A stretch of 64,000 bases of DNA from an uncultured Klebsiella sp. (GCA_964578245.1 CAZOCL010000002.1:1730-65729); one strand, 5' to 3'; positions 1,646 through 51,911 are shown, counted from the stretch's first letter. Notes: generated by a model not told the origin, from the letters alone. Program-made: numbers and translations.

Positions 1646-1647
1646 CC

Positions 1648-8363: not shown

Positions 8364-8597
8364 GCAGCGAGAACTCGCCGCACACCATAGCTGTGCGCCA
8401 ATCCGTTTTGTGCGTCCGCAACGCGGATGTTGAACATCCTGCCCCCCTTTCATTTGGTTGCGGCTGCGCATCCGTTCCGCCTCTGCGTTGAATTGCAACG
8501 GTCCGGCCAGCCGCATCCCTCAAGCCCGGAAAACGGAAGGAGGTTGCGCAAACTCCACTTGCCTTTGCGGTTTCTTCCGCAACACTCGCCGCGCGTT

Positions 8598-27143: not shown

Positions 27144-27219
27144 GCAGGAAGAGGGGATTACGATCACCAGGCGCACGACCTACTCCTACTCTTAATCCTG
27201 ATCTTCTGTGCCGATCACC

Positions 27220-27447
27220 ATGGAACTCCCCCGCATCTTCGAGCTGCCGGATGAAGTCTCCGAGTGGGACGACAAACTCTACTTCACCTTTTTGCAGGAC
27301 CACCAGTTCGGCTACCAGACACTCCTCGACGACCTGAAGGCGCGCGGCCAGGAGCAATCGGCGGAATACCAGCACTGGCTGGAACAGTTCAAGACGGTGG
27401 AGCACTACCTCGCGCGGGATTTCAACCGGCGCTATCACCAAGGATAG
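27220..27447 (+). CDS. Small acidic hypothetical protein
   Basis: MELPRIFELPDEVSEWDDKLYFTFLQDHQF... The codon usage looks coding. No family was recognised. Confidence 0.45.
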   Translation: MELPRIFELPDEVSEWDDKLYFTFLQDHQFGYQTLLDDLKARGQEQSAEYQHWLEQFKTVEHYLARDFNRRYHQG

Positions 27448-27491: not shown

Positions 27492-28526
27492 GTGCGCACC
27501 CTCTGGCTCCATCTGAAATCCCGGCGCTGGCTGCTACGGCTGCTGCTGCTCGGAGTTTCCACGGTGGTTTCGCTGCTCCTGCTGGAGATGGCCGTCCGGG
27601 TGCTGCTGCCGTATTACCACCCCCGTGCGCAACTGGTGTTTGAAACCCGCCCCAGCGGAGTGCGGACCGGCCCGCCGGGAGCGACCCGGCGGCTGTTCAA
27701 CTCCAAGAGCGACTTCGATGTGGCGGTGACGTTCAACCAGCTCGGGCTGGTGGACCGCAAGGATCTCCGGACGGCCAAGACCAACGCGCTCTACGCCATC
27801 GGCGACTCCTACACGATGGGCTGGGGCCTGCCGGAGGACGAGCGGTTCAGCAACCTGCTGGAGCATCGCCTGGGCGAGCCGGTGTATAACGTCGCCATCC
27901 CCACGGACCTCCGGGGCTACCAGCAACTGGCGGCCTATGCCGAGGAGCACGGGCCCCGGATCAGCCGGCTGGTGCTGGCCATCTGCATGGAGAATGACCT
28001 GCATGATTACCGGGCCGACCAGCCGCCCCGCGCTCCGCGCAAGCCCCCTTCCCTGCTGGTCCGGACGGAACGCTGGGTGCGGACGCACAGCGCGCTCTTC
28101 CTCGCCACCACGCATAATCTCCAGAAGATCATGTTCATCCGCCGGTCGCTGGAACGCCTCGGACTGGTCGCGGACGGCGAACAACCATTGCGGCTCCGGA
28201 CGTTCGACGAACCCGCGCTGCGCTCCTGCCGGGATCAAGTGCTCCCGCTTGCGCAAGGCCGCGAACTGGTGGTGCTGCTGATCCCGGAACGCAGCCTCTG
28301 GCTCCGTGGCGAAGGGGACACTGGCCGCACCCTGCACGATCGATTCGCCGCCCTGCTCCGCGAGGCCGGGCTGAAAGTGGTGGACCCGTTGCCGAGGTTT
28401 GACCGCGAGGGCAACCCGCTGCAGTTCTATTTCAAGGCCGATCCACACTGGAACGCGCGCGGGCACCAGATTGCGGCGGAAGAACTCCTGGCGGCGATGA
28501 AGCCAGCGGGAACCAACGCGCCCTGA
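27492..28526 (+). CDS. SGNH/GDSL-family hydrolase with an N-terminal membrane anchor
   Basis: GTG at 27492. Transmembrane segment WLLRLLLLGVSTVVSLLLL, and YAIGDSYTMGWG (the GDS block I). The longer 27264 start overlaps the previous gene. Confidence 0.65.
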   Translation: MRTLWLHLKSRRWLLRLLLLGVSTVVSLLLLEMAVRVLLPYYHPRAQLVFETRPSGVRTGPPGATRRLFNSKSDFDVAVTFNQLGLVDRKDLRTAKTNALYAIGDSYTMGWGLPEDERFSNLLEHRLGEPVYNVAIPTDLRGYQQLAAYAEEHGPRISRLVLAICMENDLHDYRADQPPRAPRKPPSLLVRTERWVRTHSALFLATTHNLQKIMFIRRSLERLGLVADGEQPLRLRTFDEPALRSCRDQVLPLAQGRELVVLLIPERSLWLRGEGDTGRTLHDRFAALLREAGLKVVDPLPRFDREGNPLQFYFKADPHWNARGHQIAAEELLAAMKPAGTNAP

Positions 28527-28527: not shown

Positions 28528-29118
28528 TCACCGCCCGAACTGCTTCAGAAACGCCGCCGCGTCGAAACCGTCCGGCTTGAAGACCAGTTCCGGGTTCAAC
28601 GGCGGTTCATAGCCCGCGTCCACCCCGGTCATCTCCCGCAGGGCACCGGTGGCCGCCCGACGGTAAAGCCCCTTGGGATCGCGTTGCTGGCAGACCACCA
28701 GCGGCGTGTCGGCGAACACCTCGATGAACTGGCCGGGGGCAAAGGTCCGGCGGAGGGCGTCCCGCTGCGCGCGGAAGGGCGAGATGCAGGCCACCACCAC
28801 GGTGAAGGACTGCGCCACCAGCACGCGCGCCATCTCGCCGATGCGCCGGACGTTCTCATGCCGGGCAGCCTCCGAGTATCCCAGGTCCGCGTTGACGGTC
28901 CGACGCAGGTCGTCCCCATCCAGCACCACGACCGGGAGGTTCTGTGACTGCAGCGCGGCCTGAATGCGCTGGGCGAGTGTGGTCTTGCCAGCGGCGGGCA
29001 GGCCGGTGATCCAGATCACGGCGGGCAACTCAAGGGTGGCGGTGGGTGCGCTCAACGGCAGAAAGCAGGCGGCAATTGCACGGGAAAGGCAAGCCGAAGC
29101 CAGCCTCTCCGGGGACAA
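28528..29118 (-). CDS. cysC: Adenylylsulfate (APS) kinase
   Basis: VIWITGLPAAGKTTLA P-loop, LDGDDLR, ACISPFR and PKGLYRRA are canonical APS-kinase blocks. The start is TTG. Confidence 0.88.
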   Translation of the reverse strand: MSPERLASACLSRAIAACFLPLSAPTATLELPAVIWITGLPAAGKTTLAQRIQAALQSQNLPVVVLDGDDLRRTVNADLGYSEAARHENVRRIGEMARVLVAQSFTVVVACISPFRAQRDALRRTFAPGQFIEVFADTPLVVCQQRDPKGLYRRAATGALREMTGVDAGYEPPLNPELVFKPDGFDAAAFLKQFGR

Positions 29119-29161
29119 TCACCTTGAAGGCGGCGCAGGCGGTCCTAGACTTTGACCCAGC

Positions 29162-29920
29162 GTGTTCGCCCAGCTCAAAGCCAGCCTCAAGAACTGGCAG
29201 CACTCTCGCTCGGCCCCGGCCCGCGTGGTTTATCAAGTTTCCCGGCTGGGCTGGTTGGGCTGCCGTCTGCTCGTGGATGCCCGCCTGCGGGCGGAGACCC
29301 TCGGCCACTGGCGGCACCGCGCCGCCTATCTTCAGCCAGCCACGGAAACCTACCTCAATCGTTATCCCGGGCTGTTCAGGCAATGCCGACTGCGGTTCGC
29401 CGAACATCCTAATCCCCGGATCCTCTCGTTTGGCTGCTCGACCGGAGAGGAGGTCCGCTCCCTGGCCAAACACCTGCCGCAGGCGGTCATTGTAGGGGTG
29501 GACATCAATGACTGGTGCCTGTCCGAGTGCTGGCGCAAGGACCCGCACCACCGGCACACCTTCCTTCATCGGCTATCTGCGGAGTTTGAACGAGAGCCGG
29601 CTTTCGATGCCATCTTCTGCATGGCCGTCCTGCAGCATACGCTGAACCGCGCCAGCGCCGACAATGCCGTGGCCCAAGGCATCACCTTCGAGGAATTCGC
29701 GCGCGAAGTGGCCGTGCTGGATGCCAAGCTGAAAACCGGCGGCCTGCTCTTTCTGGATCATGTGGACTTCCGTTTTGGGGACACGCCCTGCGCCAGCCGC
29801 TACACCCCGCTGGACTTTCCAAGAAATCGCGCCCCGCGCCCGCGGCCCATCTACGGGCCGGATCACCGCAAGCTGGCTGACGTGCAGGACACGCCAAGGG
29901 TGTTCGTCAAGCAGCGCTGA
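29162..29920 (+). CDS. Class I SAM-dependent methyltransferase (lasso-cluster associated)
   Basis: ILSFGCSTGEEVRSLA (motif I) and VGVDIND. GTG start, divergent from cysC with a 43-nt gap. Confidence 0.6.
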   Translation: MFAQLKASLKNWQHSRSAPARVVYQVSRLGWLGCRLLVDARLRAETLGHWRHRAAYLQPATETYLNRYPGLFRQCRLRFAEHPNPRILSFGCSTGEEVRSLAKHLPQAVIVGVDINDWCLSECWRKDPHHRHTFLHRLSAEFEREPAFDAIFCMAVLQHTLNRASADNAVAQGITFEEFAREVAVLDAKLKTGGLLFLDHVDFRFGDTPCASRYTPLDFPRNRAPRPRPIYGPDHRKLADVQDTPRVFVKQR

Positions 29921-30034
29921 ACCGGCAGCCTCCGCGCCGGCCCTGACCACAACCGGCCAGCCAGAGAACCCCGGCCCAGACCGGGAGATTTCAACTTGTT
30001 CCAATCGCCGGACCGCAGGTAGGATTTCGCACTC

Positions 30035-30967
30035 GTGGCTCCGACACTGGACCCTCTTCCGCCGCACCGACACCGCGTCTATGGCCTGACCATCGCGGCA
30101 TGGATTCCCTTTCCCCAGTTGCCAACGGCACCGGCAGACGCCCCTGTGGACGCTGTCTTCCGCCTCGGCGAGGTGCCGGCGGAGCTGCCGGATTTCAAGA
30201 GCCGGGGTGCCCGCTTCCGGGTTGCGCCGGGCAGATTGCTGGTCTGGATTAACGGCGTGGCGCGCTATCTGGTGGTGGACGGCCGGGAGATCATCGTCCA
30301 GCCGGCCCCGGACGCGGAGGAGAACGACCTGCGCGAGCTGCTCCTCTGCTCGCCGATGGGTGCCCTGCTGCATCAACGCGGCGTGCTGCCGCTGCATGCC
30401 AGCGTCATCGCCACCCCGCGCGGGGCGGTCGCGTTCATGGCCCACTCCGGGCATGGCAAGTCCACCCTCGCCGCGCACTTCCGCCAGCGCGGCTTCAAGA
30501 TTCTCGCCGATGACATCGCAGCGGTGTCCTTTGATGCGGGGGGGAGGCCGATGGTCGCGCCGGGCTACCCCCAGTTCAAACTCTGGCCGGACTCCGTCAA
30601 CGAACTGGGCCACAGCACGACGGATCTGCGTCAGTTCCGGACGAATGTGGAGAAGTTCTTCCTCACGTTCCCAGACGCCTTCCACTCCGAGCCGCTGCCG
30701 CTCACGCAACTGTATGTGGTGGAGGGACGGAATGACGCTGACGGGGTGACATTGGAGCCCTTGAGCGTGCCGGACAAGCTGCGCTACCTCCTCACCCACA
30801 CTTACCGCGCCCAGTATGTGCCTGGGCTCGGCCGGGAGAAGGCCCACTTCCAGACCGTGGGGCGGCTGGCGGCCACAGTTTCCGCCAAGCGCGTGCGGCG
30901 GCCCACCGATGGCACCTTCCGCCTCGAACAACTGGCCGACGCCTTGACGGCCGATTTTGCGCGATGA
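30035..30967 (+). CDS. HPr-kinase-like serine kinase (lasso peptide kinase type)
   Basis: LHASVIATPRGAVAFMAHSGHGKSTLAA P-loop, as in the HprK C-terminal domain. GTG start, followed by cluster genes. Confidence 0.75.
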   Translation: MAPTLDPLPPHRHRVYGLTIAAWIPFPQLPTAPADAPVDAVFRLGEVPAELPDFKSRGARFRVAPGRLLVWINGVARYLVVDGREIIVQPAPDAEENDLRELLLCSPMGALLHQRGVLPLHASVIATPRGAVAFMAHSGHGKSTLAAHFRQRGFKILADDIAAVSFDAGGRPMVAPGYPQFKLWPDSVNELGHSTTDLRQFRTNVEKFFLTFPDAFHSEPLPLTQLYVVEGRNDADGVTLEPLSVPDKLRYLLTHTYRAQYVPGLGREKAHFQTVGRLAATVSAKRVRRPTDGTFRLEQLADALTADFAR

Positions 30968-31809
30968 AAGGCATCGTCTGGCTGGCGAGTTATCCGAAGT
31001 CCGGTAACACTTGGTTCCGGATTTTCCTCGCCAACCTGCTGGCCGACCAGCCGACGCCGGTGGACATTAACGCCATTGAAACCGAGAACTTCGCCGCTCG
31101 AACCACTTATGACCGGGCGCTGGGCTGGGAGACCTCCGACCTGACGCTGGCGGAAGCGTCCCAAGCCCGCCTCGATGTGCAGGAAGCCCTCGCACTGGAG
31201 GACAATGTCTTCTTCAAGGTCCACGAGTCCTTCCGTGATCCAGTCAGCCACGCGCTGCTGTTCTCCCGGGTCGCGACCCGAGCTGTGTTCTACTTTCTCC
31301 GCAACCCGCTGGATGTGGCAGTCTCCTTCAGCCATCATCGGGGCAGGGACCTCGACAACACCATTGTCCGGATGAACAATCCAAACGCCACCATTGCGCC
31401 AGGCCAGGACGGACTGGGACCGCAATTACCCCAGCCCACGGGCGACTGGAGCTGGCATGTGCGGAGCTGGGCCGACGAACCGGGGCTGCCCGTGCTGGTC
31501 CTGCGCTACGAGGACATGCTGGCGCGCCCGCAGGAGGTGTTTCAAGCAGCCTGTGAGTTCGCTGGCCTGCCCAGCGAGCCAGCCCGGGTGGCCCGCGCAC
31601 TGAACCATGCCCGGTTTGAGAATGTCCGCGCGCAGGAGCAGGCAAAAGGCTTCCGTGAGGCGATGGACCGGCGCCCCTTTTTCCGGCATGGCAAGGCTGG
31701 CGGCTGGCGTGAAACCTTGTCGCCAGCGCAGGTTGCCGCTATCGTCTCCCAACATGGCGATGTCATGCGGCGCTTCGGATACCTGAACGCCGATGGTTCG
31801 CCGGTGTAA
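30964..31809 (+). CDS. PAPS-dependent sulfotransferase
   Basis: SYPKSGNTWFR (5'-phosphosulfate binding loop) and FLRNPLDVAVSFSHH (3'-phosphate binding). ATGA overlap with the kinase gene. Confidence 0.82.
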   Translation: MKGIVWLASYPKSGNTWFRIFLANLLADQPTPVDINAIETENFAARTTYDRALGWETSDLTLAEASQARLDVQEALALEDNVFFKVHESFRDPVSHALLFSRVATRAVFYFLRNPLDVAVSFSHHRGRDLDNTIVRMNNPNATIAPGQDGLGPQLPQPTGDWSWHVRSWADEPGLPVLVLRYEDMLARPQEVFQAACEFAGLPSEPARVARALNHARFENVRAQEQAKGFREAMDRRPFFRHGKAGGWRETLSPAQVAAIVSQHGDVMRRFGYLNADGSPV

Positions 31810-31929: not shown

Positions 31930-32217
31930 ATGACCAAGACCGCCCTCACCCTCCAGTCTGTCGTCGCCCAGTCGCCTGATCTGGTCGGGACGAACATCGA
32001 GGACCACACCGCGCTCCTGAGCATCACCAACGGTGCGTATTACAGCCTGGACCCCGTGGCCAGCCGCGTCTGGCAGCTCATTGAGCAGCCGCGCCCGGTG
32101 ACGGCGGTCGTGGACCATTTGCTCACCGAATACACCGTGGAGCGGGCCACTTGCGAGGCGCACACGCTCGCCTTCCTCCAGCAGCTCGCCGACGCCGATC
32201 TGCTGGCCAAGCAGTAA
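31930..32217 (+). CDS. Lasso peptide biosynthesis B1 protein (PqqD-family RRE)
   Basis: LLSITNGAYYSLDPVASRVWQLIEQPRPVTAVVDHLLTEYTV...AFLQQLADADLL is a PqqD-like winged helix. Confidence 0.82.
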   Translation: MTKTALTLQSVVAQSPDLVGTNIEDHTALLSITNGAYYSLDPVASRVWQLIEQPRPVTAVVDHLLTEYTVERATCEAHTLAFLQQLADADLLAKQ

Positions 32218-32663
32218 TGTCCCGCCTCGCCAAGTTTCTCCGGCATGACTGGGCCGGACGCGGCCTGCTGCTGGAGGCGCTGGCCTGGCTGGTCTGGGCC
32301 AAGCTGCTCCTGCTGGTCGTCCCGTTTCGCTGGATTGCGCCGCGCCTGGGCAGGCCAATGACGGAGAGCGCCGCCAGCCTGACCGAGCCCGGAAGCCTGC
32401 TTGCCTCCCGAATTTCCTGGGCCGTGCAATCCGTGGCGGCAAACGTGCCGCTAGGGCTGGTCTGCCTGCCGCAAGCCATGGCGGCCAAATGGATGCTCCG
32501 CCGCAGGCACCTCGCCAGCACGCTTTACCTCGGCGTGGCCCGGCCGGATGAGGCGAAGTTCACCGCGCACGCCTGGCTCCGCGCCGGCAACAAGATCCTG
32601 ACCGGCCGCGCCGAGAGCCGCACCCACACCACGCTCGCCTCCTTTGCTGAGGAATGGCCGTGA
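32217..32663 (+). CDS. Lasso peptide biosynthesis B2 protein (transglutaminase-like leader protease)
   Basis: TAATG overlap with B1. CLPQAMAAKWML (catalytic Cys) and FTAHAWL (His), with the size and N-terminal hydrophobic helix typical of B2. Confidence 0.82.
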   Translation: MSRLAKFLRHDWAGRGLLLEALAWLVWAKLLLLVVPFRWIAPRLGRPMTESAASLTEPGSLLASRISWAVQSVAANVPLGLVCLPQAMAAKWMLRRRHLASTLYLGVARPDEAKFTAHAWLRAGNKILTGRAESRTHTTLASFAEEWP

Positions 32664-32688: not shown

Positions 32689-34605
32689 ATGAGCGCTCTC
32701 TGCGGCTTCCTCAACCTCGACGCCGCTCCGGCTGACTCCCAGCTCGTCGCGGCGCAGGTGGCCCGATTGCAGCATCGCGGGCCGGACGGTTCCGGCACGT
32801 TCACGGAGGGTCCCTGCGCGCTGGGCCATCTGCTCCTGCGCATCACGCCGGAGGCGGACGGGGAAACGTCTCCCTTTCACAGCCCGGACGACCAGCTCGT
32901 GATCGCCTTCGACGGCCGGCTGGATCACCGCGAGGACCTGCTGGCCGCGCTCGGCGTCCCGCCCTCGGAGCGTGGCCTGCCCGATCCCGCGCTCATCCTC
33001 CGCGCGTATGCGCAGTGGGGTGCCGATTGCGTGACCAGGCTCGACGGCGAGTTTGCCTTCGCCGTCTGGGACCGGCGGCGGCAGGAGTTGTTCTGCGCGA
33101 GTGACGCTTTTGGCAGCCGCCCGTTTTACTTTTACCAGGACGCGCGGCGGCTGGTGTTTGCCAGCGCCATCCGCGGCGTGCTGGCCGTGCCCGGGGTGCC
33201 GCGCGAACTCGACGAGCTGTCCCTCGCCTGCTCGCTCGGAGGCGCGCCCCAACCGCCGGGCCAGACGCTCTACGCCCGCATTTCCTTTCTGCCCGGTGGT
33301 CGCACGCTGACCGTGCCGCGCGGTGGCCGGCCGGTGATCCGGACCTGGTGGCAGTTGACGATGGAACCGGAAATCCAGCTCCGCTCCACCGAAGACTATA
33401 CCGAGGCCTTGCGTGAACTGCTGGAGCGGGCCACGCGCTCAGCCATGCGCACGCGGCATCCGGTGGGTGCCATGCTCAGCGGCGGGCTGGACTCCAGCGG
33501 CGTAGCCTGCCTCGCTGCGCGCGACCTCGCCTCGCGCGGCCAGCGGCTCGTCACGGTGTCCACGGTGTTGCCCGAGGATTTCCAAGGCGTGGAATGGGAG
33601 AAGGAGGAAAGCGCGTTCATCCGCAGCGCCCTGGAGCGCTACCCGAACATGGCCCCGCACTGGGCGCGGGGCCTGGCTTTTCCAGTCATCACCTTCAATG
33701 ACGCGGCCTACCAGTTGCACGACGAGCCTGACAACGATCCAAAATCTTTCCGGACAGCGGAGCTGTTCCGGCTTGCGGAGCAGGCGGGGACGCGCGTCCT
33801 GCTCGGCGGCATGGGGGGCGACATGGCCGCTTCGTTCAAGGGCACCGGTTACCTGCAGCAGCTCGCCCTGGGCGCGCGCTGGGGGGAACTGGTCCGTCAC
33901 CTCCAGTTGCTGGCGCGCGTCCGGGGCGAGACGGTGCCCGGCATCTTCCGGCGCGAAGTGCTCCGGCCGCTGGCCCCCGAATGGCTGCGCCGTTGGAACG
34001 ACACGTTCCGGCACGATGCCGCAGCAACTCGGGATGAGTTCAGCATCCAGCCCGAGTTCGCCGCGCGGATGCAGATGGCCGAACGCCGCCGGGCCGCCGG
34101 ACGGGACATCGAAAGGCCGGCGGATTTCCGACGCCTGCAGGTTTCGCTGGCGAACGCCGGCCTCCTCGGCGGCGGCTCAGGCTGGGCGAGCCGCCACACC
34201 CCGCACATGGAAAGCCCCCAGCCGCTCATGAACCGCCGGCTTTGGGAGTGGTGCCACCGGGTGCCGCTGGGAGAGTTCACGCGGGATGGCATGTCCCGCG
34301 GGCTCTACCGCCGTGCGCTGCACGATGTGCTGCCGGAGCGCATTCTGCGCCGCCACTCCAAAGGCTGGTTCGCGCCGGACTACGTGCAGCGCCTCGCTGC
34401 CTGCCGCCCGGCGATGGAACGCTTCCTCGCGGAGCATCCCGCGCAGGACGCGGTTTGGAATTACGTGAGCCGCCCTCAAGTGGAGGCGACCTTACAGCGT
34501 CTGGCCGCCGCTGGCACTCAGGCCAGATGGGACAATCGTTACCAAATCATCCTGTGTCAGGGCCTCCGGCTAGCACACTTTGTCACTTGGATGCGGGGGC
34601 GGTGA
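32689..34605 (+). CDS. Lasso peptide cyclase (asparagine-synthetase-like, C protein)
   Basis: MSALCGFL N-terminus, MLSGGLDSSGVA PP-loop, and about 640 aa in length. It follows B2. Confidence 0.85.
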   Translation: MSALCGFLNLDAAPADSQLVAAQVARLQHRGPDGSGTFTEGPCALGHLLLRITPEADGETSPFHSPDDQLVIAFDGRLDHREDLLAALGVPPSERGLPDPALILRAYAQWGADCVTRLDGEFAFAVWDRRRQELFCASDAFGSRPFYFYQDARRLVFASAIRGVLAVPGVPRELDELSLACSLGGAPQPPGQTLYARISFLPGGRTLTVPRGGRPVIRTWWQLTMEPEIQLRSTEDYTEALRELLERATRSAMRTRHPVGAMLSGGLDSSGVACLAARDLASRGQRLVTVSTVLPEDFQGVEWEKEESAFIRSALERYPNMAPHWARGLAFPVITFNDAAYQLHDEPDNDPKSFRTAELFRLAEQAGTRVLLGGMGGDMAASFKGTGYLQQLALGARWGELVRHLQLLARVRGETVPGIFRREVLRPLAPEWLRRWNDTFRHDAAATRDEFSIQPEFAARMQMAERRRAAGRDIERPADFRRLQVSLANAGLLGGGSGWASRHTPHMESPQPLMNRRLWEWCHRVPLGEFTRDGMSRGLYRRALHDVLPERILRRHSKGWFAPDYVQRLAACRPAMERFLAEHPAQDAVWNYVSRPQVEATLQRLAAAGTQARWDNRYQIILCQGLRLAHFVTWMRGR

Positions 34606-35050: not shown

Positions 35051-35221
35051 ATGAGCCTTATGAACACGACCACCGCCTCCGCCTCAGTCGAAAACACCGA
35101 GTCCAAGCAGGTTTGGACCGCCCCCACTTTGACGACGCTTTCGCTCCCGCTGGGAACGCTTTCCAATGCTGCCACCGGTGCGGATGGCATGTCGTCGAAA
35201 GCGGCGGGAAGCCTAAGCTAA
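35051..35221 (+). CDS. Lasso peptide precursor A1 (56 aa)
   Basis: MSLMNTTTASASVENTESKQVWTAPTLTTLSLPLGTL|SNAATGADGMSSKAAGSLS. It has a WxxPxL leader motif, Thr at -2 and Asp at core position 8. Its paralog is at 36727. Confidence 0.8.
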   Translation: MSLMNTTTASASVENTESKQVWTAPTLTTLSLPLGTLSNAATGADGMSSKAAGSLS

Positions 35222-35343: not shown

Positions 35344-36495
35344 ATGTATAGCTTGCGCGGTTATGGAGAAATGATCGCGGATGAAGGCCGGGCCACCGCC
35401 TTCGAGCAATCGATCCGTGCCGCCGTCAAGCCACAGTCTGTGGTGCTCGAGCTGGGCACGGCCACCGGGCTGATGGCCCTCTGGGCTGCGCAGGCCGGTG
35501 CGCGCCATGTCCATGCCGTCGAGCCAGATAAATCCATCGTCCTCGCCCGACAAAGTGCGAGAGACAATGGGTTTGCCAGCCGCATTACCTGTCATCAGAA
35601 GCTGTCCACCCAGCTCACGCTGTCGGAGCGGGCGGACGTGTTCATAGAGGATTTGCGCGGGTCCATGCCGTGCTGCAGGACTCGGTTGCTGGACATCATG
35701 GACGCGCGGGCGCGGCTGCTCACGCCGGATGCGACTTTGATCTGCCAGCGGGATACGTGCTTCGTCACGGTGGCCGAGGCCGAGAAGCCGTCGCGTCACA
35801 TGCACGCAGTGTGGGACGGAAGCCGCTGGGGGCTGGACTTGAGGGCGGTGCAACGGCTGGCACCCAATTGCATGACCCATCATCGCTGCGCCCCCGAGGA
35901 ACTGCTAGCGGAACCGCGCGCCTGGGCGGAGATTCACTACCCGACCGTCAGTTCGCCCCATGTGCGGGGCGCGGCGGAGCTCACTGTCCTTCGTCCTGCC
36001 ACCGCGCACGGGCTGGCGCTCTGGTTCGACGCGGAACTGTTCGGCGGCATCCGTTTCTCGAATGCCCCAAGCGAGCCGAAGCACGTTTACAACAATGCCT
36101 TCCTGCCATGGCCAGCACCCACGCCCCTGCAGGCGGGCGACCGGGTGGTGGTGAAGCTGGACGCGGTCTTTACTGGCGGAGAATATGAGTGGAACTGGGC
36201 GAGCACCGTCTGGCGCGAAGGCGCGGCGGAACCCGTCGCGCGGTTCAGCCAGTCCACGTTACAAGGCCGGCCGGTTTCCGCGCCGGCACTGGCCCTTCGC
36301 ACCGGCAGCTTCCGCCCGCACCGCAATGACGCCGCCGAAGTGGAGCGCTTCCTGCTCGAACGCATGGATGGCCAGGCCACCAACGACCAACTGGCCGCCG
36401 CGCTCCGCACCCAGTTTCCCAATGCCTTCCCCACCGACACCGCCGCGCTCGCCCGCGTGGTGGACACCGTGGAGAAGTTCAGCGCTACGAGTTGA
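35344..36495 (+). CDS. PRMT-like class I methyltransferase with a PqqD/RRE-like C-terminal domain
   Basis: VLELGTATGLMALWAAQAGARHVHAVE (PRMT-type motif I) and a beta-barrel-like middle region. The C-terminal FLLERMDGQATNDQLAAALRTQFP...ALARVVDTVEKF resembles PqqD. Confidence 0.65.
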   Translation: MYSLRGYGEMIADEGRATAFEQSIRAAVKPQSVVLELGTATGLMALWAAQAGARHVHAVEPDKSIVLARQSARDNGFASRITCHQKLSTQLTLSERADVFIEDLRGSMPCCRTRLLDIMDARARLLTPDATLICQRDTCFVTVAEAEKPSRHMHAVWDGSRWGLDLRAVQRLAPNCMTHHRCAPEELLAEPRAWAEIHYPTVSSPHVRGAAELTVLRPATAHGLALWFDAELFGGIRFSNAPSEPKHVYNNAFLPWPAPTPLQAGDRVVVKLDAVFTGGEYEWNWASTVWREGAAEPVARFSQSTLQGRPVSAPALALRTGSFRPHRNDAAEVERFLLERMDGQATNDQLAAALRTQFPNAFPTDTAALARVVDTVEKFSATS

Positions 36496-36626: not shown

Positions 36627-36726
36627 GCGAATGCGTTCGTCACTGCCAGTTGAAGAATGAAAGACTTGCAGGTTCGCGGGCAATACGACTATCCTCCACA
36701 AGGTTTTACCGCAGGGATTTGTGAAC

Positions 36727-36876
36727 ATGAACACCGCCACCGTCGAAAACACTGATGGGTCCAAGCAGGTTTGGACCGCCCCCACTTTGACAACGCTTTC
36801 GCTCCCGCTGGGAACGCTGGCCACCGGTAACAATGGTTCGGATGGTGGCGTCATGGCCAGCACCACCAGGAGTTAG
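36727..36876 (+). CDS. Lasso peptide precursor A2 (49 aa)
   Basis: MNTATVENTDGSKQVWTAPTLTTLSLPLGTL|ATGNNGSDGGVMASTTRS. About 60 nt of the leader are near-identical to A1. It is below the ORF-track cutoff. Confidence 0.8.
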   Translation: MNTATVENTDGSKQVWTAPTLTTLSLPLGTLATGNNGSDGGVMASTTRS

Positions 36877-37041
36877 CTGGTTGTTGTCAAATGGCAGCCT
36901 GACCATGCACTGCCCGCACCGTGGAGAAGTCCAACCCCACGGGCTCGGAGGCACGGAACGTGGCCGTGAGGCCGCCGAAACGTGAGCAGGCCACGGTGGA
37001 TGCGAACGCACTACTCCAGTCAGGGTTCTGCGGCGTTCCAT

Positions 37042-37815
37042 TCAAAACAAGCCCGTGTCGTAGTGTTTCAGCCACCGGAACAGTCCACGGTGCTCCTCCG
37101 GAATGGCAGCCAGACGCTCTGGTGAAATCTTCATAAATGGCTGCTGGCGGTAGTTCTGGTAGTCCTTGAACCACGGGCGGTGATACACGCAGTAGAGCAT
37201 GGGCCGAGGCTGGTCGGAAAGGTTCGCGGTGCCGTGATGGAACAGCCGGTAGTCCACCAGCAGGCCGCAGCCCAGCGGCACGGTGGGATCCAGCCCGGGA
37301 GTTGCCTTGCCCTCCTCGTCCGGTTTCAAGTGCGAGCCGGGCATCAGGCGGGTGGTGCCGTTGGTTGCGTTGAACTCGCGGAGCGGGATGAAGAGATTGA
37401 CCGCGTGGGGCGGGAGAAAACGGTTTAGCACGGGACCGAACAGCAGCGGGTTGTCCCGATGAAGGTGCTGGTCCTTGGCTCCCGGCAAGGATGTGACTGA
37501 GGCAAAGCTGCCCAGCACCAAGTCCGACCCGAGCAACTGCTGGAGCACCGGCAGGACGAGCGGGTTGGCGTAAAGCGCCGCATCAAGAAAGGGCATCTCC
37601 ATCTCCAAAGTAACCATGAACCGGCGGCTGCCCACCTTGAGCGCATCCCCTGGCCGGTCTTCGTCGAAATACCGGGCGTAACGCTCGCAATACACTTCAC
37701 CGAGCTGGCTGACGAGTTCACGGGGCAGCAGGTCACGAACGAGCAGGCATCCATGACGGCGAAATTGCTCGGCGCAGCTTTCCGGAGTCGAGGCGGCGGT
37801 GAGTTCGGGAACCAT
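37042..37815 (-). CDS. PhyH-family Fe(II)/2-oxoglutarate dioxygenase
   Basis: DQHLHRD (HxD) and LFHHGTAN (distal His). The length and pattern are those of phytanoyl-CoA-dioxygenase-like hydroxylases. Confidence 0.75.
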   Translation of the reverse strand: MVPELTAASTPESCAEQFRRHGCLLVRDLLPRELVSQLGEVYCERYARYFDEDRPGDALKVGSRRFMVTLEMEMPFLDAALYANPLVLPVLQQLLGSDLVLGSFASVTSLPGAKDQHLHRDNPLLFGPVLNRFLPPHAVNLFIPLREFNATNGTTRLMPGSHLKPDEEGKATPGLDPTVPLGCGLLVDYRLFHHGTANLSDQPRPMLYCVYHRPWFKDYQNYRQQPFMKISPERLAAIPEEHRGLFRWLKHYDTGLF

Positions 37816-37907: not shown

Positions 37908-38747
37908 TCACCACCCCAGCCACGTGCGCAGCCCGCCGCTGGTGAACAGCACCGCTGGATAGCAGGCGAGGAAGGCCCATAGAAACGGCGCGAGGCCCAT
38001 GAAGTGGCCGATGCCGAGGTGCAAGAGGAAGACCCCGGCCACAAACACCGCCGCCACCGGCCCGCCCGTCAGCCAGGCCAGCGGGAAGCCGATCTCCAAC
38101 ACGAGCGCGCCCCAGGTCGCCGTCCGATTCACTGCGGGGTGCGCGGCCAGCCACGCCGCCAGCCGGCGGTCTCCCATCAGGTCCTGCCGCAGCAGGCAGC
38201 CGATGGCTTCTCCCGAGCGCCAGGCCCCGGTCGTGAGGGCCTTGAGCACACCGCTCGTGAAGTAGGCCAGCGCGCACTGACCGGCGATGAACCACAGGAC
38301 CGCCTGCGCCACGGATGCGCTCGCCGGCGCGAGTTCCCGCAGCACGAGCGCGCCCAGCACGGCAAGCCGCATCCGGTCCGCCCCGAGCACGCCCAGACCG
38401 AATTGCCGCACATTGATCAGCACGGCGGCCACCACGCCCAGCCACAAGGCGAGGGGACGCACCACGGGGTCGGCCGGCACCAGCACCAGCACCAGCCCGG
38501 CGAGCAGTCGGGCCACCTGGAGGGCAGCAAACCCGGTGGCGCGGAACAGGCAACCCAGCGCCACCGGACCTTCGCCCCGCAGGCGCGAGCGCTGGCGCAG
38601 CAGTGGCCAGCCCAGCACCGCGTCATCCGCCCAGGCGTTGCGGGCGGCCAGCCATTCGGCCGCCGAAACCGCGAGACTGACGCCAGCAAGCCGTGTGACC
38701 AGTGTCACGCACGCGAAGGGATCCTGCAGCCAGACGGCGTCAATCAC
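37908..38747 (-). CDS. Polytopic membrane protein, unknown function
   Basis: About 8 hydrophobic segments. The GTG start overlaps the upstream stop (GTGA). No family was recognised with confidence. Confidence 0.6.
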   Translation of the reverse strand: MIDAVWLQDPFACVTLVTRLAGVSLAVSAAEWLAARNAWADDAVLGWPLLRQRSRLRGEGPVALGCLFRATGFAALQVARLLAGLVLVLVPADPVVRPLALWLGVVAAVLINVRQFGLGVLGADRMRLAVLGALVLRELAPASASVAQAVLWFIAGQCALAYFTSGVLKALTTGAWRSGEAIGCLLRQDLMGDRRLAAWLAAHPAVNRTATWGALVLEIGFPLAWLTGGPVAAVFVAGVFLLHLGIGHFMGLAPFLWAFLACYPAVLFTSGGLRTWLGW

Positions 38748-39280
38748 ACGGCCTCCCCTCCCGTTGCCAGCGGCAGAAACTCGGAGGTGTAGAGGCGCTG
38801 CTCGGGGGCGTCCGCCGTGATCAGCAGTTGCTCGCGCAGTTCAAACTGCCGCGCGGTCGTTCCCGGCGGGCCGGCCACGCCCGCCACGCAGTGCCATAAA
38901 GCCCGCCAGGCTGGAGTGCTGGCCAGGCGTTCCGCCGGCAGCGCGGCGCGCACGCGGTCGGCCAGCAGCTCCGCGAGCGAATACTGCGCGTCGGCTGCGA
39001 ACAGCTCCGGATTGAAGAACGCGCGCCAGGGCCGCTGGCTGCGCTCGGCAGGCAACCACCGCCATTCGCCGACGCTCCCAGCGGCATCCCGGTCGCGATA
39101 ATAGAGCCGCACATTCGTCGGGAGCCCGGTGTAAAGCCGCCAGCTCGGCACGAGCCGTAAGAAGTCGAATCGCGCCATGACTGCGGTCAGGCGGGTGAAG
39201 CACAGTTGGTAGGCCACGGAGACGGCGAACCATGCTGCCAGCAGCAGGAGGGCGAGCCATTCCATGACGGCGAGATTCAT
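38744..39280 (-). CDS. Membrane-anchored hypothetical protein
   Basis: ATG at 39280 (MNLAVMEWLALLLLAAWFAVSVAY...) in an ATGA overlap with the upstream gene. The longer 39460 start overlaps that gene and is unlikely. Confidence 0.5.
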   Translation of the reverse strand: MNLAVMEWLALLLLAAWFAVSVAYQLCFTRLTAVMARFDFLRLVPSWRLYTGLPTNVRLYYRDRDAAGSVGEWRWLPAERSQRPWRAFFNPELFAADAQYSLAELLADRVRAALPAERLASTPAWRALWHCVAGVAGPPGTTARQFELREQLLITADAPEQRLYTSEFLPLATGGEAV

Positions 39281-40464
39281 GATTGGGCAGCGAGCCGCCG
39301 CTTCACCCACAGCAGCGGCCAGAGCACGTAGTAGAGGGCGAACCACCGGTCCGGGAGGGGCAGCGTCTGCCAGTCCGCCGGGTTCACCACGCGCGGACGC
39401 AACATGCGGAGGCGCACGCGCCAGCTTGGCTGCAGCCGCCAGGCGTAGCCAACCATCCACCAGTGCGCCGAGCCGGTCTTGATTTCATCCGGCGTCAGCT
39501 CCATGTGGCGGCAGGCGTCGTCCACGAGCTGGGTGAGCACGGGAGTTTCCGGCGGAGCCGGCAGCCCGGCCGGCAGCGGCACGGCGAGGAGTTCACGCGC
39601 GAGCAGGACGCTCTGCCAGAAGACGCGCTCCAGTTTCGTCGCCTCCGCCCGGGCGAGCAGGCGCGGCCAGTCGAGTGTGCCAGCCTGCATCAGCAGCGCG
39701 ATGTCCAGGAGCCAGAAGAGCCGGAACCAGCCGTGGTCCGCGCCGTGCAGGAGCAGGTGCAGCGCGGCCGTCTCCGCCGGCAGCACGGCGATGCGCTGGC
39801 CCGCAATGGTCGCCGTGCCCGGAGCTTCCCCCAGCGTGCTGCGGTGGAAGTGCTCGTGGTTCACCAGCCGCCACATGATCTCCAATCGCAGCGCGCCGTC
39901 CGCGCTGAAATACTCAAACTCATGACGCACGCTGAAGTATTTCTGCTGCTGGAGCGGCGTGAGCGGAAAGTCCGGCTGGGTGCGACGGAACCCGGCGTCT
40001 TGCAGCAGCCGGTCCGCGCGTTCGGCGTCCGCCTGGCGGATCAGCAGGTCCAGGTCGCCCGAGTGGCGCAGGCCCAGATCGCCATACAAGTCGCGAGCCA
40101 GCAGCGGCCCTTTCACGCTCGTGACGGGGATGCCGGCTTGTTCGAGCAGCTTCACGAGGCGCGTCAGTTCGCCGGTGCGCTGCATGGCGCGGAGGGCGGT
40201 GTCCCGGGCACTGCTGGCGAGCCGCTGGCGCACTGCCTCCGGCAGCGCGGCCAAAGCCTCGCGGGGCAGCCGTTGTTGCAGGAACGCACCCACGCGATGC
40301 CGCTCGACGAGGGCCAGGAACGTGCCGGCGTCCGTGCCCTCCGGCCAGGGCAACTCCGGCGGCGCAGTGCGCAGCGCGACCCGCAAGGCGTGGAGGAGGA
40401 GGCGTATTTCCGCCGGCCAGTGGCGGGCGCGGCCGGGGAGTTCCAGGGGTGGCACGGGGTTCAT
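39277..40464 (-). CDS. NTP_transf_5-type uncharacterised nucleotidyltransferase
   Basis: ATG at 40464 (MNPVPPLELPG...). VKGPLLARDLYGDLGLRHSGDLDLLI (G..hS.DlDlL motif) and HGADHGW are typical of this family. Confidence 0.65.
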   Translation of the reverse strand: MNPVPPLELPGRARHWPAEIRLLLHALRVALRTAPPELPWPEGTDAGTFLALVERHRVGAFLQQRLPREALAALPEAVRQRLASSARDTALRAMQRTGELTRLVKLLEQAGIPVTSVKGPLLARDLYGDLGLRHSGDLDLLIRQADAERADRLLQDAGFRRTQPDFPLTPLQQQKYFSVRHEFEYFSADGALRLEIMWRLVNHEHFHRSTLGEAPGTATIAGQRIAVLPAETAALHLLLHGADHGWFRLFWLLDIALLMQAGTLDWPRLLARAEATKLERVFWQSVLLARELLAVPLPAGLPAPPETPVLTQLVDDACRHMELTPDEIKTGSAHWWMVGYAWRLQPSWRVRLRMLRPRVVNPADWQTLPLPDRWFALYYVLWPLLWVKRRLAAQS

Positions 40465-40761
40465 GGCGCACACCGTGGGGGGCAGGACGCGCTCACTCCG
40501 AGCGCCGAAGCGGGCGGACACCGCCGGCCCGGAGCGCGGCCTGCAGGCCGCAGAAACGTGCGCCGGCCCGGGGTGGTTCGAACGCACTTCTCGCGTCGGA
40601 GCTTTCTGCGGCCTGAAGGCCGCGCTGCACGGGCGCGAAGTTCCGCCGGCTCGTGGAGGCCCATACCAGCGTGGGTCGAAATTCTTGTGTTCGCGAGTGT
40701 CATCCTGACCAGATGCGGAAAAGCAGGCGCAGACCGGAGTAAAATGGCAAAGCAAAACCAC

Positions 40762-40815: not shown

Positions 40816-42399
40816 TTACTTGCCGTCGGCACCACCGCCTTCAAGGTGCACGGCCTTGTAACCGCCGATGGACTTGAAGTAGAGCAGGATGCCCAGATAA
40901 ATCAGCGCCATCATGGCGGGGATGGCGGAATCGGCCACGAGCGTGCGGCGATCACCGGCAATGGAGGCTTCCGCCGCAGCCTTCTGCTCCGGCGTGCGCT
41001 TGGCCGCCTCTGCCTTCTGAGCATCGGCGAGTTTGGTGCCATCGAGGCCGTTCACTTCGCTGAAGAAGAGGAAGGAACTGGACTTGTCCGCCTTGAACTG
41101 TTTGTAGGCTTCCGGGTTTGCCTTCTGCAATTCCTCGCCAGCGAAGCGGTCCTTGGCGTAGCCAAGACCGGGGGAGCCGAGCATGCCCGCCGACATCATG
41201 CCGATGCCACCCATGATGGAGATGGCGATGGCACCCGTGCGCGGGAAACGATCTGAGGCCACGGCCAGCATGGTCGGCCAGAAGAAGGTCTTGCCGATGC
41301 CGTAAACCGTGAGGGCGAGTAGCGCCCCGCCGAAGCTGGAGATGCCGCTGACGAGGTTGAGGCCGACGCACGCGAGCACCGCGCAGGTGAGCAGGATGGC
41401 CACCGGGGTAAGGCCGATTTTGCGCTCGATGAAGTCCGCGCAGAAGCGCAGTGCAAACATCGTGGCCGAGGTGAAGACGAAGAGAATCTTGCCTTCGCTG
41501 GAGCTGAGGATGTTGCCGGTGATGTTCTGAATCCATCCGTCCGTGCCGAGTTCGACTGCGCCAACCAGCGCATGGGCCAGGAAAAGGACGAACAGGAGCA
41601 CCGAGCCCATGGAGAACTTGGTCATCACCGCGACCACCACGAGCAACGCGCCGCCGATGCCATAGGAAATCCCGGCGGAAAGACCGAGCGTGTCCTTGCA
41701 GAAGAGCGCCAGCAGGCTGCACACAACGAGGCCGCCAAGGATGCCGACATCCTTGAGCATTTCGCCGAGGCTCAGCCCTTTCTTGGAAGCCTCCGATTTG
41801 GGGAAGCTCTGGCCGAAGAACATGATGCCGTAGGCGACGGTGGGGATCAGGTAGAGGCCGAGCTGGATCTTCCAGTTGACCTTCATCTGGTCGTCCAGCA
41901 CCCAGCCCAGCACGCCACCGATGATGAGGCCGGCGGGCCAGGAGGCATGGAGGATGTTCAGGTAGTGCGTGCGGTTGTGCGGGAAAAGTGTGGCCACGAG
42001 CGGATTGGCGACGGCTTCAAGCGTTCCGTTGGCGAAGGCGAAGATGAACATGCCCCACTTGAGCATGTCGAAGGCGTTCTCCTTGCTCGTGGCCCCGAAG
42101 GTCACGAAGGCGGACAGCACATGCAGCGCGAAGGCGACAATCACCAGCTTGCCGTAGCCGATCTTGTCGCAGACCACGCCACCGATGATGATGCCGAAGC
42201 AGAAGCCGGTGAAGCCAGCGCCGCCGATCGCCCCAAGCTGGGCACCCGTAAAGCCAAACTCCTCGCCCCAGTTGTCAAAGATGCCGCCGCGGATGGCGAA
42301 GCCGACACCGGCAGCGAGAATGGCCATGAAGCCGGCCCACAGCAGCCGTTTGGCATTGGGCGCGATGGCCTCGTTGGAGATCGTTTTGTCTTCTATCAT
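40816..42399 (-). CDS. MFS transporter
   Basis: About 12 transmembrane segments. [12 protein letters not shown] loop 2-3 motif and a long hydrophilic C-terminal tail. Confidence 0.8.
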
Positions 42400-43567: not shown

Positions 43568-44006
43568 GGTATATGGCTGGTTAACGATTGGCAGCGCGCA
43601 CCATGCCCGCTCCGCCGACGTCCAGCCATGAGTTCCTGCGCATTCGATTTGAACAATTTCCCGCCGGTCGTGGACGCGAAAAAGCGCTTCCACGAATGAG
43701 TTTGACCGGCGGCAACGCGGCGAATCAAACCGCTCCGCCATTCGACCGTCAACGCGAAACTGGAAAACGTGCAACGAGGACGGGCGGAACTTATCTCACC
43801 ACTCGTCGGCCGGGTCCGGAAATCCGAAGGGGAGGCCGGTGCGAAGGAGCGGAAGCATTTCCCAATTCGCGACCTTGCGCGCCGTTCGCGTCTGCGTTCC
43901 GTTCCTTTCACATGGCCGCGAGTCAACCCAGCTTGGTGGTTTGGCTCGCGGGGCTCCTGACTTTGCGGCTTGCCACGCCCGGGCCTTTTCGCTTAGAAGT
44001 CGGGGG

Positions 44007-45080
44007 ATGCCGTTGCCGTTTTTCAGCAGCTTCGAAAAGAAGCGGGACCAGGTAATGGTCATCGACCTGGGAGCCAAGGTCACGAAAGCGGTCCATATTT
44101 CCCGCAAGTCCAACGGCTTCACCCTGAACAATTTCGCGCTGGTGGACGCACCGGTGTATGACAAGGGCTTGAACGTCGTGCCGATGGCCAACCACCTCCG
44201 CGCGGTGGCCCAGGTGCTGAATGCACGGCTCAAACCCGTCAGCCTGGCCGTGGGCGTGGAAAGCTCCCTGCTGCGCCATGCGGACATGCCCCTGGTCACG
44301 GCGCATGACATGCGGCAGATGCTCAAATTCAGCAGCAAGAACTACTTGCAGCAGGATCTCTCGGACTGTGTCTTCGACGTGCATATCCTGCCTCCGAAGG
44401 TGGACTCCGCGCCCAAGGGTGCCGACGCGCCCAAGGCCGCCACACCGAAGACTCGAGTGCTGGTCGGCGCGGCCAAGAAGCAGGTGGTGGAGGACCTCAA
44501 GGAAGCCGCCGAGCAGGCAGGCTTGCAGGCGGATCAGATCATCCCGAGCTTCATCGGCCCGGCCAATGCGTTTGAGCAGGCGCAGCCGGATGCGTTCGGG
44601 AAGGAAGTGGTCGCCCTGGTGGACGTGGGCTACAAGAACACGACCATCTGCATCCTTTATAATGGCGAGCTGACCTTGAGCCGCGTGGTGGCCTTTGGCT
44701 CTGGCAAGCTCACGCAGGGCATTTCCGAGGCGCTGGGCATGAGCATGGACGAGGCGGAGGGCGCGAAACTGACCATGCCGCCTGAGGTGGAGTCCGTGGC
44801 GCAGTCGCTGCTCTCCCCCCTGGGCCGGGAACTGCGGGCCTCGATCGATTTCCACGACCACCAGCGGGACCGCGCCGTGAGCCAGGTGTTTTTCTCTGGC
44901 GGGGCCTCGCGGAGCGCACAGATCGTGCAGGCGCTCCAGGTGGAACTGATGGTGCCGTGCCAGACTTGGAACCCGACCAGCTTCATGACGTTGAACCTGC
45001 CGCCGCAACTGCTGGGCGAGATCGAATCCATCGCGCCGCAGTTGACCGTGGCCGTGGGCGCGGCAATGGCCGCCTTTTAG
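44007..45080 (+). CDS. pilM: Type IV pilus assembly ATPase-fold protein PilM
   Basis: ATG at 44007. It has an actin-like fold pattern (VIDLGAKVTK...VDVGYKNTTI...FSGGASR) and is followed by pilN/O/Q-like genes. Confidence 0.8.
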   Translation: MPLPFFSSFEKKRDQVMVIDLGAKVTKAVHISRKSNGFTLNNFALVDAPVYDKGLNVVPMANHLRAVAQVLNARLKPVSLAVGVESSLLRHADMPLVTAHDMRQMLKFSSKNYLQQDLSDCVFDVHILPPKVDSAPKGADAPKAATPKTRVLVGAAKKQVVEDLKEAAEQAGLQADQIIPSFIGPANAFEQAQPDAFGKEVVALVDVGYKNTTICILYNGELTLSRVVAFGSGKLTQGISEALGMSMDEAEGAKLTMPPEVESVAQSLLSPLGRELRASIDFHDHQRDRAVSQVFFSGGASRSAQIVQALQVELMVPCQTWNPTSFMTLNLPPQLLGEIESIAPQLTVAVGAAMAAF

Positions 45081-45086
45081 ACTGAC

Positions 45087-45755: not shown

Positions 45756-45756
45756 A

Positions 45757-46368: not shown

Positions 46369-46371
46369 CCG

Positions 46372-47046: not shown

Positions 47047-47082
47047 GACCGCTCGGCGGCGCGAGCCGCCGGCCAACCGACC

Positions 47083-48792: not shown

Positions 48793-48814
48793 GCAGTCGC
48801 GAATTTCTAGTTCC

Positions 48815-51898: not shown

Positions 51899-51911
51899 AA
51901 TTGCGAATTGC

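Follow-up and report, generated by a model that had tools for sequence, protein, structure and literature searches.

A kinase-type lasso-peptide gene cluster with an overlapping kinase–sulfotransferase gene pair and its own APS kinase

Gene content of the locus

The DNA described here is a stretch of 64,000 nucleotides (the window, with positions counted from its first letter) from an assembly titled 'uncultured Klebsiella sp.' (GCA_964578245.1, CAZOCL010000002.1:1730-65729), in which genes were called from third-position GC content and profile searches (window G+C about 65%). A single gene cluster spans approximately 28.5-42.4 kb, with the housekeeping genes rnpA, yidC and jag upstream and a pilM-to-secretin operon downstream. 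It belongs to the kinase type of lasso-peptide biosynthetic clusters, and three of its genes form the subject of this report: a stand-alone cysC encoding an adenosine 5'-phosphosulfate (APS) kinase (28528..29118 as the longest open reading frame (ORF), minus strand), a gene for an HPr-kinase-like lasso-peptide kinase with a P-loop and the fold of phosphoenolpyruvate carboxykinase (PEPCK) and HprK (30035..30967, plus strand), and a gene for a 281-aa sulfotransferase (ST) predicted to depend on 3'-phosphoadenosine 5'-phosphosulfate (PAPS; 30964..31809, plus strand). An initial annotation of the sequence had proposed, from these genes, a possible sulfated ribosomal peptide.

The lasso machinery follows the kinase–ST pair on the plus strand. 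It consists of B1, a PqqD-type RiPP recognition element (31930..32217; PqqD 7.5e-18, NF033536 lasso_PqqD_Bac 72 bits), the transglutaminase-like leader peptidase B2 (32217..32663; Transglut_core3 8.3e-24, NF033537 lasso_biosyn_B2 89 bits) and the asparagine-synthetase-like cyclase C (32689..34605; Asn_synthase, GATase_6 and GATase_7, NF033535 8.5e-118). NF033537 is above its cut-off (89 versus 33 bits), while NF033536 (72 versus 80) and NF033535 (395 versus 525) fall just under the cut-offs of these 'exception' models.

The sulfotransferase

The ST matches Sulfotransfer_1 (PF00685, 2e-25) over aa 5-263 with 90.1 bits against a cut-off of 22. The initial annotation placed both PAPS-binding loops in this ORF and had it overlap the kinase stop codon, and both statements are borne out: PKSGNTW lies at aa 11-17 and RNPLDVAVSFSHH at aa 113-125, and the junction reads gcgcgATGAaa, the ATG at 30964 running into the TGA that ends at 30967. 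Alignment with Teg12, whose N-terminus is matched from residue 1 of the ST onwards, makes this start secure. Among 44 homologues of 48-89% identity, residues K12, S13, G14, T16, K85, H87, R113, S121, R241 and G243 are nearly or fully invariant, as are the 3'-phosphate-binding motif R113..D117..S121 and the C-terminal F239-F-R241-H-G243-K-A-G246. In an alignment with SULT1A1, PKSGNTW stands against PKSGTTW and the PAPS residues match K48, R130, S138, Y193 and R257-G259; the match, at E 1e-12, marks the sequence used for SULT1A1 as that of a genuine SULT. K85 and H87, invariant in the family, occupy the expected strand after the first helix block, where the BLASTP alignment has a gap, so that their equivalence to SULT1A1 K106 and H108 is presumed rather than aligned.

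An AlphaFold2 (AF2) model of the ST has a predicted local distance difference test score (pLDDT) of 92.8, and its best Foldseek match is Teg12 in complex with PAP and teicoplanin aglycone (E 3e-12, TM 0.69), followed by SULT1A1, SULT2A1 and StaL. Sequence searching of the PDB ranks Teg12, Teg14 and StaL highest. Motifs and model together point to an intact PAPS-dependent O-sulfotransferase whose nearest characterized relatives decorate peptide antibiotics. Common to the ST and to Teg12, Teg14 and StaL is the N-terminal loop M-x-G-I-x-W-[IL]-A-S-Y-P-K-x-G-N-T-W, and those enzymes, too, are PAPS-dependent and tailor a peptide natural product. Unlike the ST, with which they share 22-24% identity, they have no kinase partner, and what they sulfate are phenolic hydroxyls of non-ribosomal aglycones; the cores predicted here lack any aromatic hydroxyl.

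A Rhodovibrionaceae metagenome-assembled genome (MAG) carries three tandem ST paralogues with no kinase or lasso genes near them (L051:758-3342), which shows the ST family at work beyond lasso clusters as well.

The kinase

The kinase contains the motif H121..A136-x-S-G139-x-G141-K142-S143..D159-D160, with the spacing seen in BsfK and in earlier lasso kinases (PMC10368454); mutagenesis of BsfK has shown that this motif matters (PMC10368454). Family profiles place the protein at some distance from described groups. NCBIfam HprK_rel_A matches at 2.5e-8, under its cut-off, and the curated HprK-related hidden Markov models TIGR04352 and TIGR04355 give 33 and 23 bits against cut-offs of 200 each. 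A Pfam scan of the kinase returned no match at E <= 0.01, leaving a weak precomputed PF27840 assignment, and its homologues carry PF07475 (Hpr_kinase_C) and PF27840 (ScmC). Because it scores below the curated HprK-related cut-offs and has only weak PF27840/PF07475 signals, we treat the kinase as a separate subfamily.

The AF2 model (pLDDT 95) has PEPCK-like top folds. A fold search recovered PEPCK-type kinases, with HPr kinase itself absent among the top 50, and a sequence search of the PDB with the kinase gave noise only. We read the fold match as the P-loop fold common to PEPCK and HprK, which the model suggests and which is no proof of HprK membership. Five related loci (L006, L043, L060, L072 and L073) have two tandem kinase paralogues ahead of a single ST, and one of them, L072, also has four precursor genes.

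Kinase–sulfotransferase coupling across related loci

Related loci were collected by an alignment-based scan of species-representative genomes, which found at least 594 stretches encoding ST relatives, of which the best 80 were kept, and by a metagenome scan with the ST alignment, which added 80 loci; exact-protein look-ups contributed close relatives. A metagenome scan with the single ST protein as query had returned nothing, whereas the alignment query succeeded. The resulting 161 loci, 107 of them at least 8 kb long, were scored by tblastn with the window's proteins. The kinase was present in 129 of the 161 loci (97 of the 107 longer ones), lasso B1, B2 or C in 119 (91 of 107), and NTP_transf_5 in 54 (50 of 107).

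The kinase is the immediate upstream neighbour of the ST, in the same orientation, in 120 of the 129 kinase-holding loci. Stop and start codons overlap in 80 of these 120 pairs, 51 of them by four bases, and the gap is 20 nt or less in 113. Placement of B1, B2 and C around the pair varies, and the conserved part is the junction. One locus, L068, belongs to an isolate, Petrachloros mirabilis ULC683, and combines the order Kin-ST-B1 with B2 and C. Record titles assign the loci to at least 13 phyla: Verrucomicrobiota, Bacteroidota, Chloroflexota, Acidobacteriota, Pseudomonadota, Desulfobacterota, Myxococcota, Gemmatimonadota, Actinomycetota, Bacillota, Spirochaetota, Cyanobacteriota and Binatota. 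The translational coupling of ST to kinase put forward in the initial annotation thus extends well beyond the window, and the kinase–ST pair is, as judged from gene order and overlap, a conserved, translationally coupled module in at least 13 phyla.

The APS kinase and PAPS supply

The product of cysC scores 193.4 bits against 138.7 for TIGR00455 and 180 bits against 21 for PF01583 (APS_kinase, 3.4e-53), and has the P-loop GLPAAGKTT. Its longest ORF starts at TTG 29118, the gene caller on an identical contig starts it at 29019 (163 aa), and conservation with two relatives (L084 and L001) reaches back to about TTG 29055 (175 aa); from these comparisons the true start is probably 29055 or 29019. 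The initial annotation had cysC divergent from the neighbouring methyltransferase gene by 43 nt. The divergence stands, but the distance applies only to the longest ORF and is otherwise up to 142 nt, measured to the methyltransferase start at 29162.

Pfam scans of about 55 ORFs in the window found no PAPS_reduct (CysD/CysH), CysN-type GTPase or ATP-sulfurylase domain, in agreement with the earlier statement that no cysD, cysN, cysH or other assimilation gene is present. We rejected a reading of cysC as part of an assimilation operon, as no such genes occur in the window or beside cysC in the relatives with a lone cysC.

The position of cysC divergently upstream of the kinase is shared with close relatives. 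It is seen in L084 (ST identity 89%, with the same methyltransferase gene between), L001 and L167 (72% and 71%, no gene between) and L168 (69%, with a GT4 glycosyltransferase gene between), and it is not seen in L166 (78%), L169 (67%), L170 (65%) or L002 (64%). Among syntenic clusters with ST identity of at least 69%, adjacency is therefore kept in five of six, the window included, and L166 is the sole absence. The genes outside cysC differ each time: rnpA-yidC-jag-SGNH in the window, NIR_SIR/CysJ-like and SGNH genes in L084, and methionine sulfoxide reductase in L167. Because these outer flanks differ in every case, cysC appears to travel with the cluster and not with its surroundings.

More distantly, an APS kinase gene occurs in 10 of the 161 loci (2.0 Mb in all), against a chance expectation of about 0.5-1.3, and ten control genes taken from the window, among them the universal yidC, mfd and rnpA, were each found in 0-1 loci. 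The PAPS genes come as cysC alone or as cysD with cysN/cysC, in varied arrangements. A Bacillota MAG (L048) has the order Kin-ST-cysD-cysNC; in a Rectinemataceae MAG (L060) cysD-cysNC follows the cyclase gene; a Gemmatimonadaceae MAG (L027) holds cysNC and cysD; and in a Geobacteraceae MAG (L073) a lone cysC stands between an ATP-binding cassette (ABC) exporter and a nucleotidyltransferase. L096 has cysC shortly before the kinase, L130 reads ST-cysD-cysN-cysC, and L148 has cysD-cysN-cysC between cyclase and nucleotidyltransferase. In L027, L073 and L148 these PAPS genes are bracketed by cluster genes. The proposal that cysC is there to supply PAPS to the cluster thus gains from three observations, namely the lack of other sulfate genes in the window, the same position in four relatives and the enrichment among related loci, and a role as cluster-dedicated PAPS supply is well supported by gene context. 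No other indirect evidence now available speaks as strongly as this repeated recruitment of PAPS genes for an active, PAPS-consuming ST that works on the cluster product.

The 5' end of cysC is near-identical DNA in the window (29020-29100, minus strand), L084 (about 7890-7970) and L001 (about 8930-9010, where CysC is 64% identical overall). The segment may encode a conserved N-terminal extension (ASACLS..VAACF.PLSAP), or it may act as a regulatory element in the divergent promoter region; a search for the latter gave no Rfam match, no significant RNA fold (z -0.78) and no sigma-70-like promoter.

One MAG, GCA_964496695.1, contains two kinase–ST lasso clusters (L002, CAZCBE010000001, and L084, CAZCBE010000006), with cysC in one only. 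It is titled 'uncultured Klebsiella sp.', yet it has high-GC genes whose closest relatives are Verrucomicrobiota-like, and the label looks wrong.

The precursor peptides

Two precursor genes were recognized. A1 (35051..35221, plus strand), identified by its leader motif, predicted core and likeness to related-locus precursors, has a leader ending in KQVWTAPTLTTLSLPLGTL and the 19-residue core SNAATGADGMSSKAAGSLS, with a predicted Ser1-Asp8 ring. A2 (36721..36876, ATG at 36727, plus strand) has the same leader and the 18-residue core ATGNNGSDGGVMASTTRS, with a predicted Ala1-Asp8 ring. Both end in Ser, and both leaders have Thr at -2, the predicted cleavage site lying between ...G-T-L and S1...D8 in A1 or A1...D8 in A2. 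The cores are as rich in potential acceptors as first noted, with six Ser/Thr residues each (6/19 and 6/18). Neither predicted core contains Tyr, and a Tyr-sulfation (RaxST-like) reading was rejected on this ground.

A1 and the precursors of related loci have in common the leader motif W-x-x-P-x-L-x-x-L, a Thr at -2 and a Ser or Thr at the C-terminus. A C-terminal Ser is found in 72 of 104 candidate precursors of related loci, against a background of 9.4% in all short reading frames, and all ten precursors from relatives in the close (Verrucomicrobial) clade end in Ser or Thr. There is a weak tendency in this clade towards an [ST]-x-[ST]-COOH end (7/10). Across the precursors of all related loci, a search for a second conserved hydroxyl that could mark a sulfation site found none besides the C-terminal Ser/Thr. 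A Ser at the C-terminus is the phosphorylation site in paeninodin, in the ThcoK and SyanK substrates and in pseudomycoidin (PMC8498205, PMC6993621). For pseudomycoidin, bulky C-terminal groups have been suggested to hold the tail threaded (PMC6993621); because the tails of both cores here lack large plug residues, the same idea may, by analogy, apply to them.

Other genes of the cluster and its surroundings

A class I S-adenosylmethionine-dependent methyltransferase, MT1, is encoded between cysC and the kinase gene (29162..29920, plus strand; Methyltransf_12/23/25/11). It precedes the kinase in L084 and L166, is absent from L001 and L167, and is replaced by a GT4 glycosyltransferase in L168. 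A second methyltransferase, MT2, weakly PRMT/PrmA-like (35344..36495, plus strand; PRMT_C 5e-5, PrmA 1e-4), lies between the two precursor genes and recurs in seven related loci and in L167 and L168. Downstream on the minus strand is a PhyH-family Fe(II)/2-oxoglutarate dioxygenase, a candidate hydroxylase (37042..37815; PhyH 1.9e-16), which has a homologue in L036 and is absent from L084. Compared with the latter cluster, 36721-37815 of the window is an extra segment holding A2 and the dioxygenase.

The remaining cluster genes are also on the minus strand. A polytopic membrane protein with weak SdpB-family likeness (37908..38747; TIGR04033 7e-6, far under cut-off) is 86% identical in L084 and has 281-282 aa counterparts in L166 and L168-L170. 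A conserved 178-aa protein without family match (38744..39280) is 73% identical to the product of the same-position L084 gene, and genes for 173-183 aa proteins occupy its position in L166 and L168-L170. They are followed by a PsmN-like NTP_transf_5 nucleotidyltransferase (39277..40761 as longest ORF; 6.6e-57), whose homologues are shorter, at about 393-401 aa, and by a major facilitator superfamily (MFS) transporter that is a probable exporter (40816..42399; MFS_1 6.5e-18) and whose equivalent position is filled by ABC exporters in L167-L170. The membrane protein, the 178-aa protein, NTP_transf_5 and an exporter form a conserved sub-block that accompanies the cluster in the Verrucomicrobial clade (window 37908-40761, minus strand; L084, L166 and L168-L170).

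On the other side, an SGNH/GDSL-type, AlgX-like hydrolase gene (27492..28526, plus strand; ALGX 1.9e-11, Lipase_GDSL_2 6.4e-8; start taken from the gene caller on the identical contig L081) converges on cysC. It is kept beside cysC in L084 only, at 79% identity, and its membership of the cluster is uncertain. A small acidic 79-aa ORF without family match lies between jag and this hydrolase gene (27208-27447); it was also called on L081 and is missing at the corresponding place in L084. Further out, 872-9770 holds a deoxysugar-type set (a nucleotidyltransferase, 4,6-dehydratase-like epimerases, a dTDP-4-dehydrorhamnose 3,5-epimerase, two C-methyltransferases, a CmcI-type O-methyltransferase and a GT2), after which comes a deoxyhypusine synthase homologue. 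The region 43839-58150 comprises the pilM-to-secretin operon and genes for three giant NHL-repeat proteins (1027, 1219 and 844 aa), beyond which are proteins with prepilin-type N-methylation motifs.

Discussion

From gene identities, intact motifs, the kinase–ST overlap and the conservation of the module and of PAPS genes, all of which are observed, we infer every chemical step of the following scheme. The best explanation, and in our judgement a likely one, is that the kinase and its coupled ST act on one lasso peptide while the cluster's own CysC feeds PAPS to the reaction; from its gene content, the product of the cluster is probably a sulfated and phosphorylated lasso peptide. Two precursors with the same leader and a C-terminal Ser would be made, and the HPr-kinase-like enzyme would, as in its characterized homologues, phosphorylate that Ser on the linear precursor. 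Translational coupling would fix the proportion of ST to kinase, and the ST would move sulfate from PAPS onto the same peptide, most likely onto a hydroxyl in the C-terminal tail or close to it. The cluster CysC would turn cellular APS, provided by an ATP sulfurylase encoded elsewhere, into PAPS, and so secure a donor for sulfation that would otherwise compete with primary sulfur metabolism or be absent from it. B1, B2 and C would then strip the leader and close the Ser1/Ala1-Asp8 macrolactam, the methyltransferases, dioxygenase and nucleotidyltransferase may add further groups, and the MFS pump would export the product. The acceptor does not have to be a Ser/Thr side chain of the core; besides a side chain of this kind in the tail, the phosphate carried by the last residue and a sugar attached by the nucleotidyltransferase are candidates.

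The cluster resembles those of paeninodin (PadeK), ThcoK, SyanK and pseudomycoidin (PsmK/PsmN) in its split B1/B2 and C, its H..GxxGxGKS..DD-type kinase and its Ser-ending precursors, as well as in the PsmN-like NTP_transf_5 gene and an exporter; ST genes have been noted bioinformatically in some clusters of this type (PMC8498205, PMC4289311). It is unlike them in the coupling of ST to kinase, the APS kinase of its own, the two methyltransferases and the PhyH dioxygenase, and its host is Verrucomicrobiota-like whereas theirs are Firmicutes or Proteobacteria. No characterized member of the type has demonstrated sulfation, and the window kinase, as described above, scores far under the curated HprK-related cut-offs. 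Genome mining noted HPr-kinase and sulfotransferase genes in lasso clusters in 2014 (PMC4289311), and a 2021 review repeats the observation of ST genes with a citation of 2016 work and calls the ST putative (PMC8498205). The initial annotation recognized neither the kinase-type lasso family, with its Ser-ending precursors, nor this prior literature.

Other systems offer parallels for a sulfated product and for its donor supply. In the literature searched, the Tyr-sulfated RaxX of Xanthomonas is the only sulfated bacterial ribosomal peptide. Its sulfation by RaxST (with RaxP/RaxQ) is supported by a dedicated ATP sulfurylase/APS kinase. RaxX differs from the peptides predicted here in being sulfated on Tyr, which the cores here lack, in being a linear secreted peptide and not a lasso, and in having no kinase partner. 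In Nod-factor sulfation, NodPQ (with NodH) duplicates CysDN/C. The arrangement proposed here has been shown experimentally for Sam35, a lone CysC homologue in the saccharomicin cluster, without CysD/N, which raises PAPS for the ST of that cluster (PMC13291958). Both of the latter systems sulfate sugars, of an oligosaccharide or a lipochitooligosaccharide, and not a ribosomal peptide. Bacteria that reduce APS directly need PAPS for sulfation only, a branch point described in Mycobacterium (PMC4373884); if the same holds here, it would account for an APS kinase belonging to the cluster itself.

Several points weigh against this explanation. The first Gly of the kinase motif, which is important for activity in BsfK (G163), is Ala136 here (window 30440-30445); three close relatives share the Ala, whereas 36 of 40 homologues have Gly at this position. 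Tyr is absent from the cores, and the nearest characterized STs use phenolic or alcohol hydroxyls of non-ribosomal substrates, so that the substrate class cannot be transferred from them. A literature search for sulfated or sulfonated lasso peptides found no report, and searches for RiPP sulfotransferases and for links between lasso clusters and APS kinase or PAPS gave nothing relevant. PAPS genes accompany only about 6-8% of related loci, most distant kinase–ST clusters having none, and the association is therefore facultative. The kinase–ST pair may owe part of its conservation to being inherited as a module, and not to biochemical dependence, and the comparisons all draw on MAGs and metagenome contigs.

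The alternative that survives best, unlikely as we hold it to be, is that phosphorylation of the C-terminal Ser/Thr by the kinase comes first and the ST next sulfonates either this phosphate, which yields a peptidyl phosphosulfate, or a sugar that the nucleotidyltransferase has joined to the phosphate, with no direct sulfation of an amino-acid hydroxyl. Such serial action would suit a kinase-then-ST order and coupling that are near-obligate across phyla while other genes are rearranged, a precursor set without any conserved hydroxyl apart from the terminal one, and the occurrence of NTP_transf_5 here and in almost half of the longer loci; in characterized systems the C-terminal phosphate is a handle for polyphosphate and for PsmN-added hexoses (PMC8498205, PMC6993621). 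However, the nucleotidyltransferase is missing from about half of the loci, which means that a sugar acceptor would not be general, the coupling may merely equalize the amounts of kinase and ST, and the [ST]-x-[ST]-COOH ends of the close clade offer a second hydroxyl. To our knowledge, no sulfotransferase uses a phosphate oxygen as acceptor. We regard as improbable the specific outcome in which both enzymes act in series on the C-terminal Ser/Thr to form a peptidyl phosphosulfate, a P-O-S mixed anhydride of the kind also found in APS and PAPS, or another composite anionic C-terminal group. If true, this would be a new type of post-translational modification and a bulky charged lock for a plug-less lasso tail, and it would be widespread given the distribution of the module over at least 13 phyla.

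It is very unlikely, in our view, that cysC is a housekeeping APS kinase for assimilatory sulfate reduction that lies beside the cluster by chance. This reading draws on a view limited to the window, in which only cysC is seen, and on the absence of PAPS genes from most distant kinase–ST clusters and of cysC from L166 despite 78% ST identity. It is countered by the lack of an operon with cysD, cysN, cysH or sat, by the same divergent position in four other clusters whose outer flanks are all different, and by the recurrence of PAPS genes in unrelated kinase–ST clusters at a frequency that none of the ten controls approaches.

Still less probable is transient sulfation, in which the ST would turn a hydroxyl into a leaving group for a following elimination or substitution and the mature peptide would be free of sulfate. 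The ST matches do include elimination-assisting relatives (retinol dehydratase and LGS1 by structure, the CurM ST by sequence), but these are weaker than Teg12 and the SULTs, no conserved lyase-like partner gene lies beside the ST, and phosphorylation by the adjacent kinase would already give a leaving group. Least probable of all is a non-peptide substrate for the ST, for instance a glycolipid or small phenol, with the place of the enzyme in a lasso cluster being incidental: automated annotations do name homologues 'aryl sulfotransferase', and a few homologues lack kinase or lasso genes (L051 with its three tandem copies, L065 and L077), but kinase–ST adjacency in 120 loci, lasso genes in 91 of the 107 long loci from at least 13 phyla, the stop/start overlap with a peptide kinase and the closest solved relatives, which tailor peptide antibiotics, all argue against it.

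The presence of an ST in clusters of this type is not new; as far as we know, what is new is the breadth and tightness of kinase–ST coupling and the repeated recruitment of PAPS genes, together with an architecture that combines cysC, two methyltransferases, a dioxygenase and two precursors. For heterologous expression, the lesson is that CysC or CysDN/C should be supplied with the cluster, as an absent donor could be one reason why sulfated products have gone unreported. Because sulfate and phosphate differ in mass by only 9.5 mDa, past mass assignments in this family may deserve a second look. Finally, much work has gone into lasso peptides as scaffolds for drug design, and each new tailoring reaction widens the range of what can be made.

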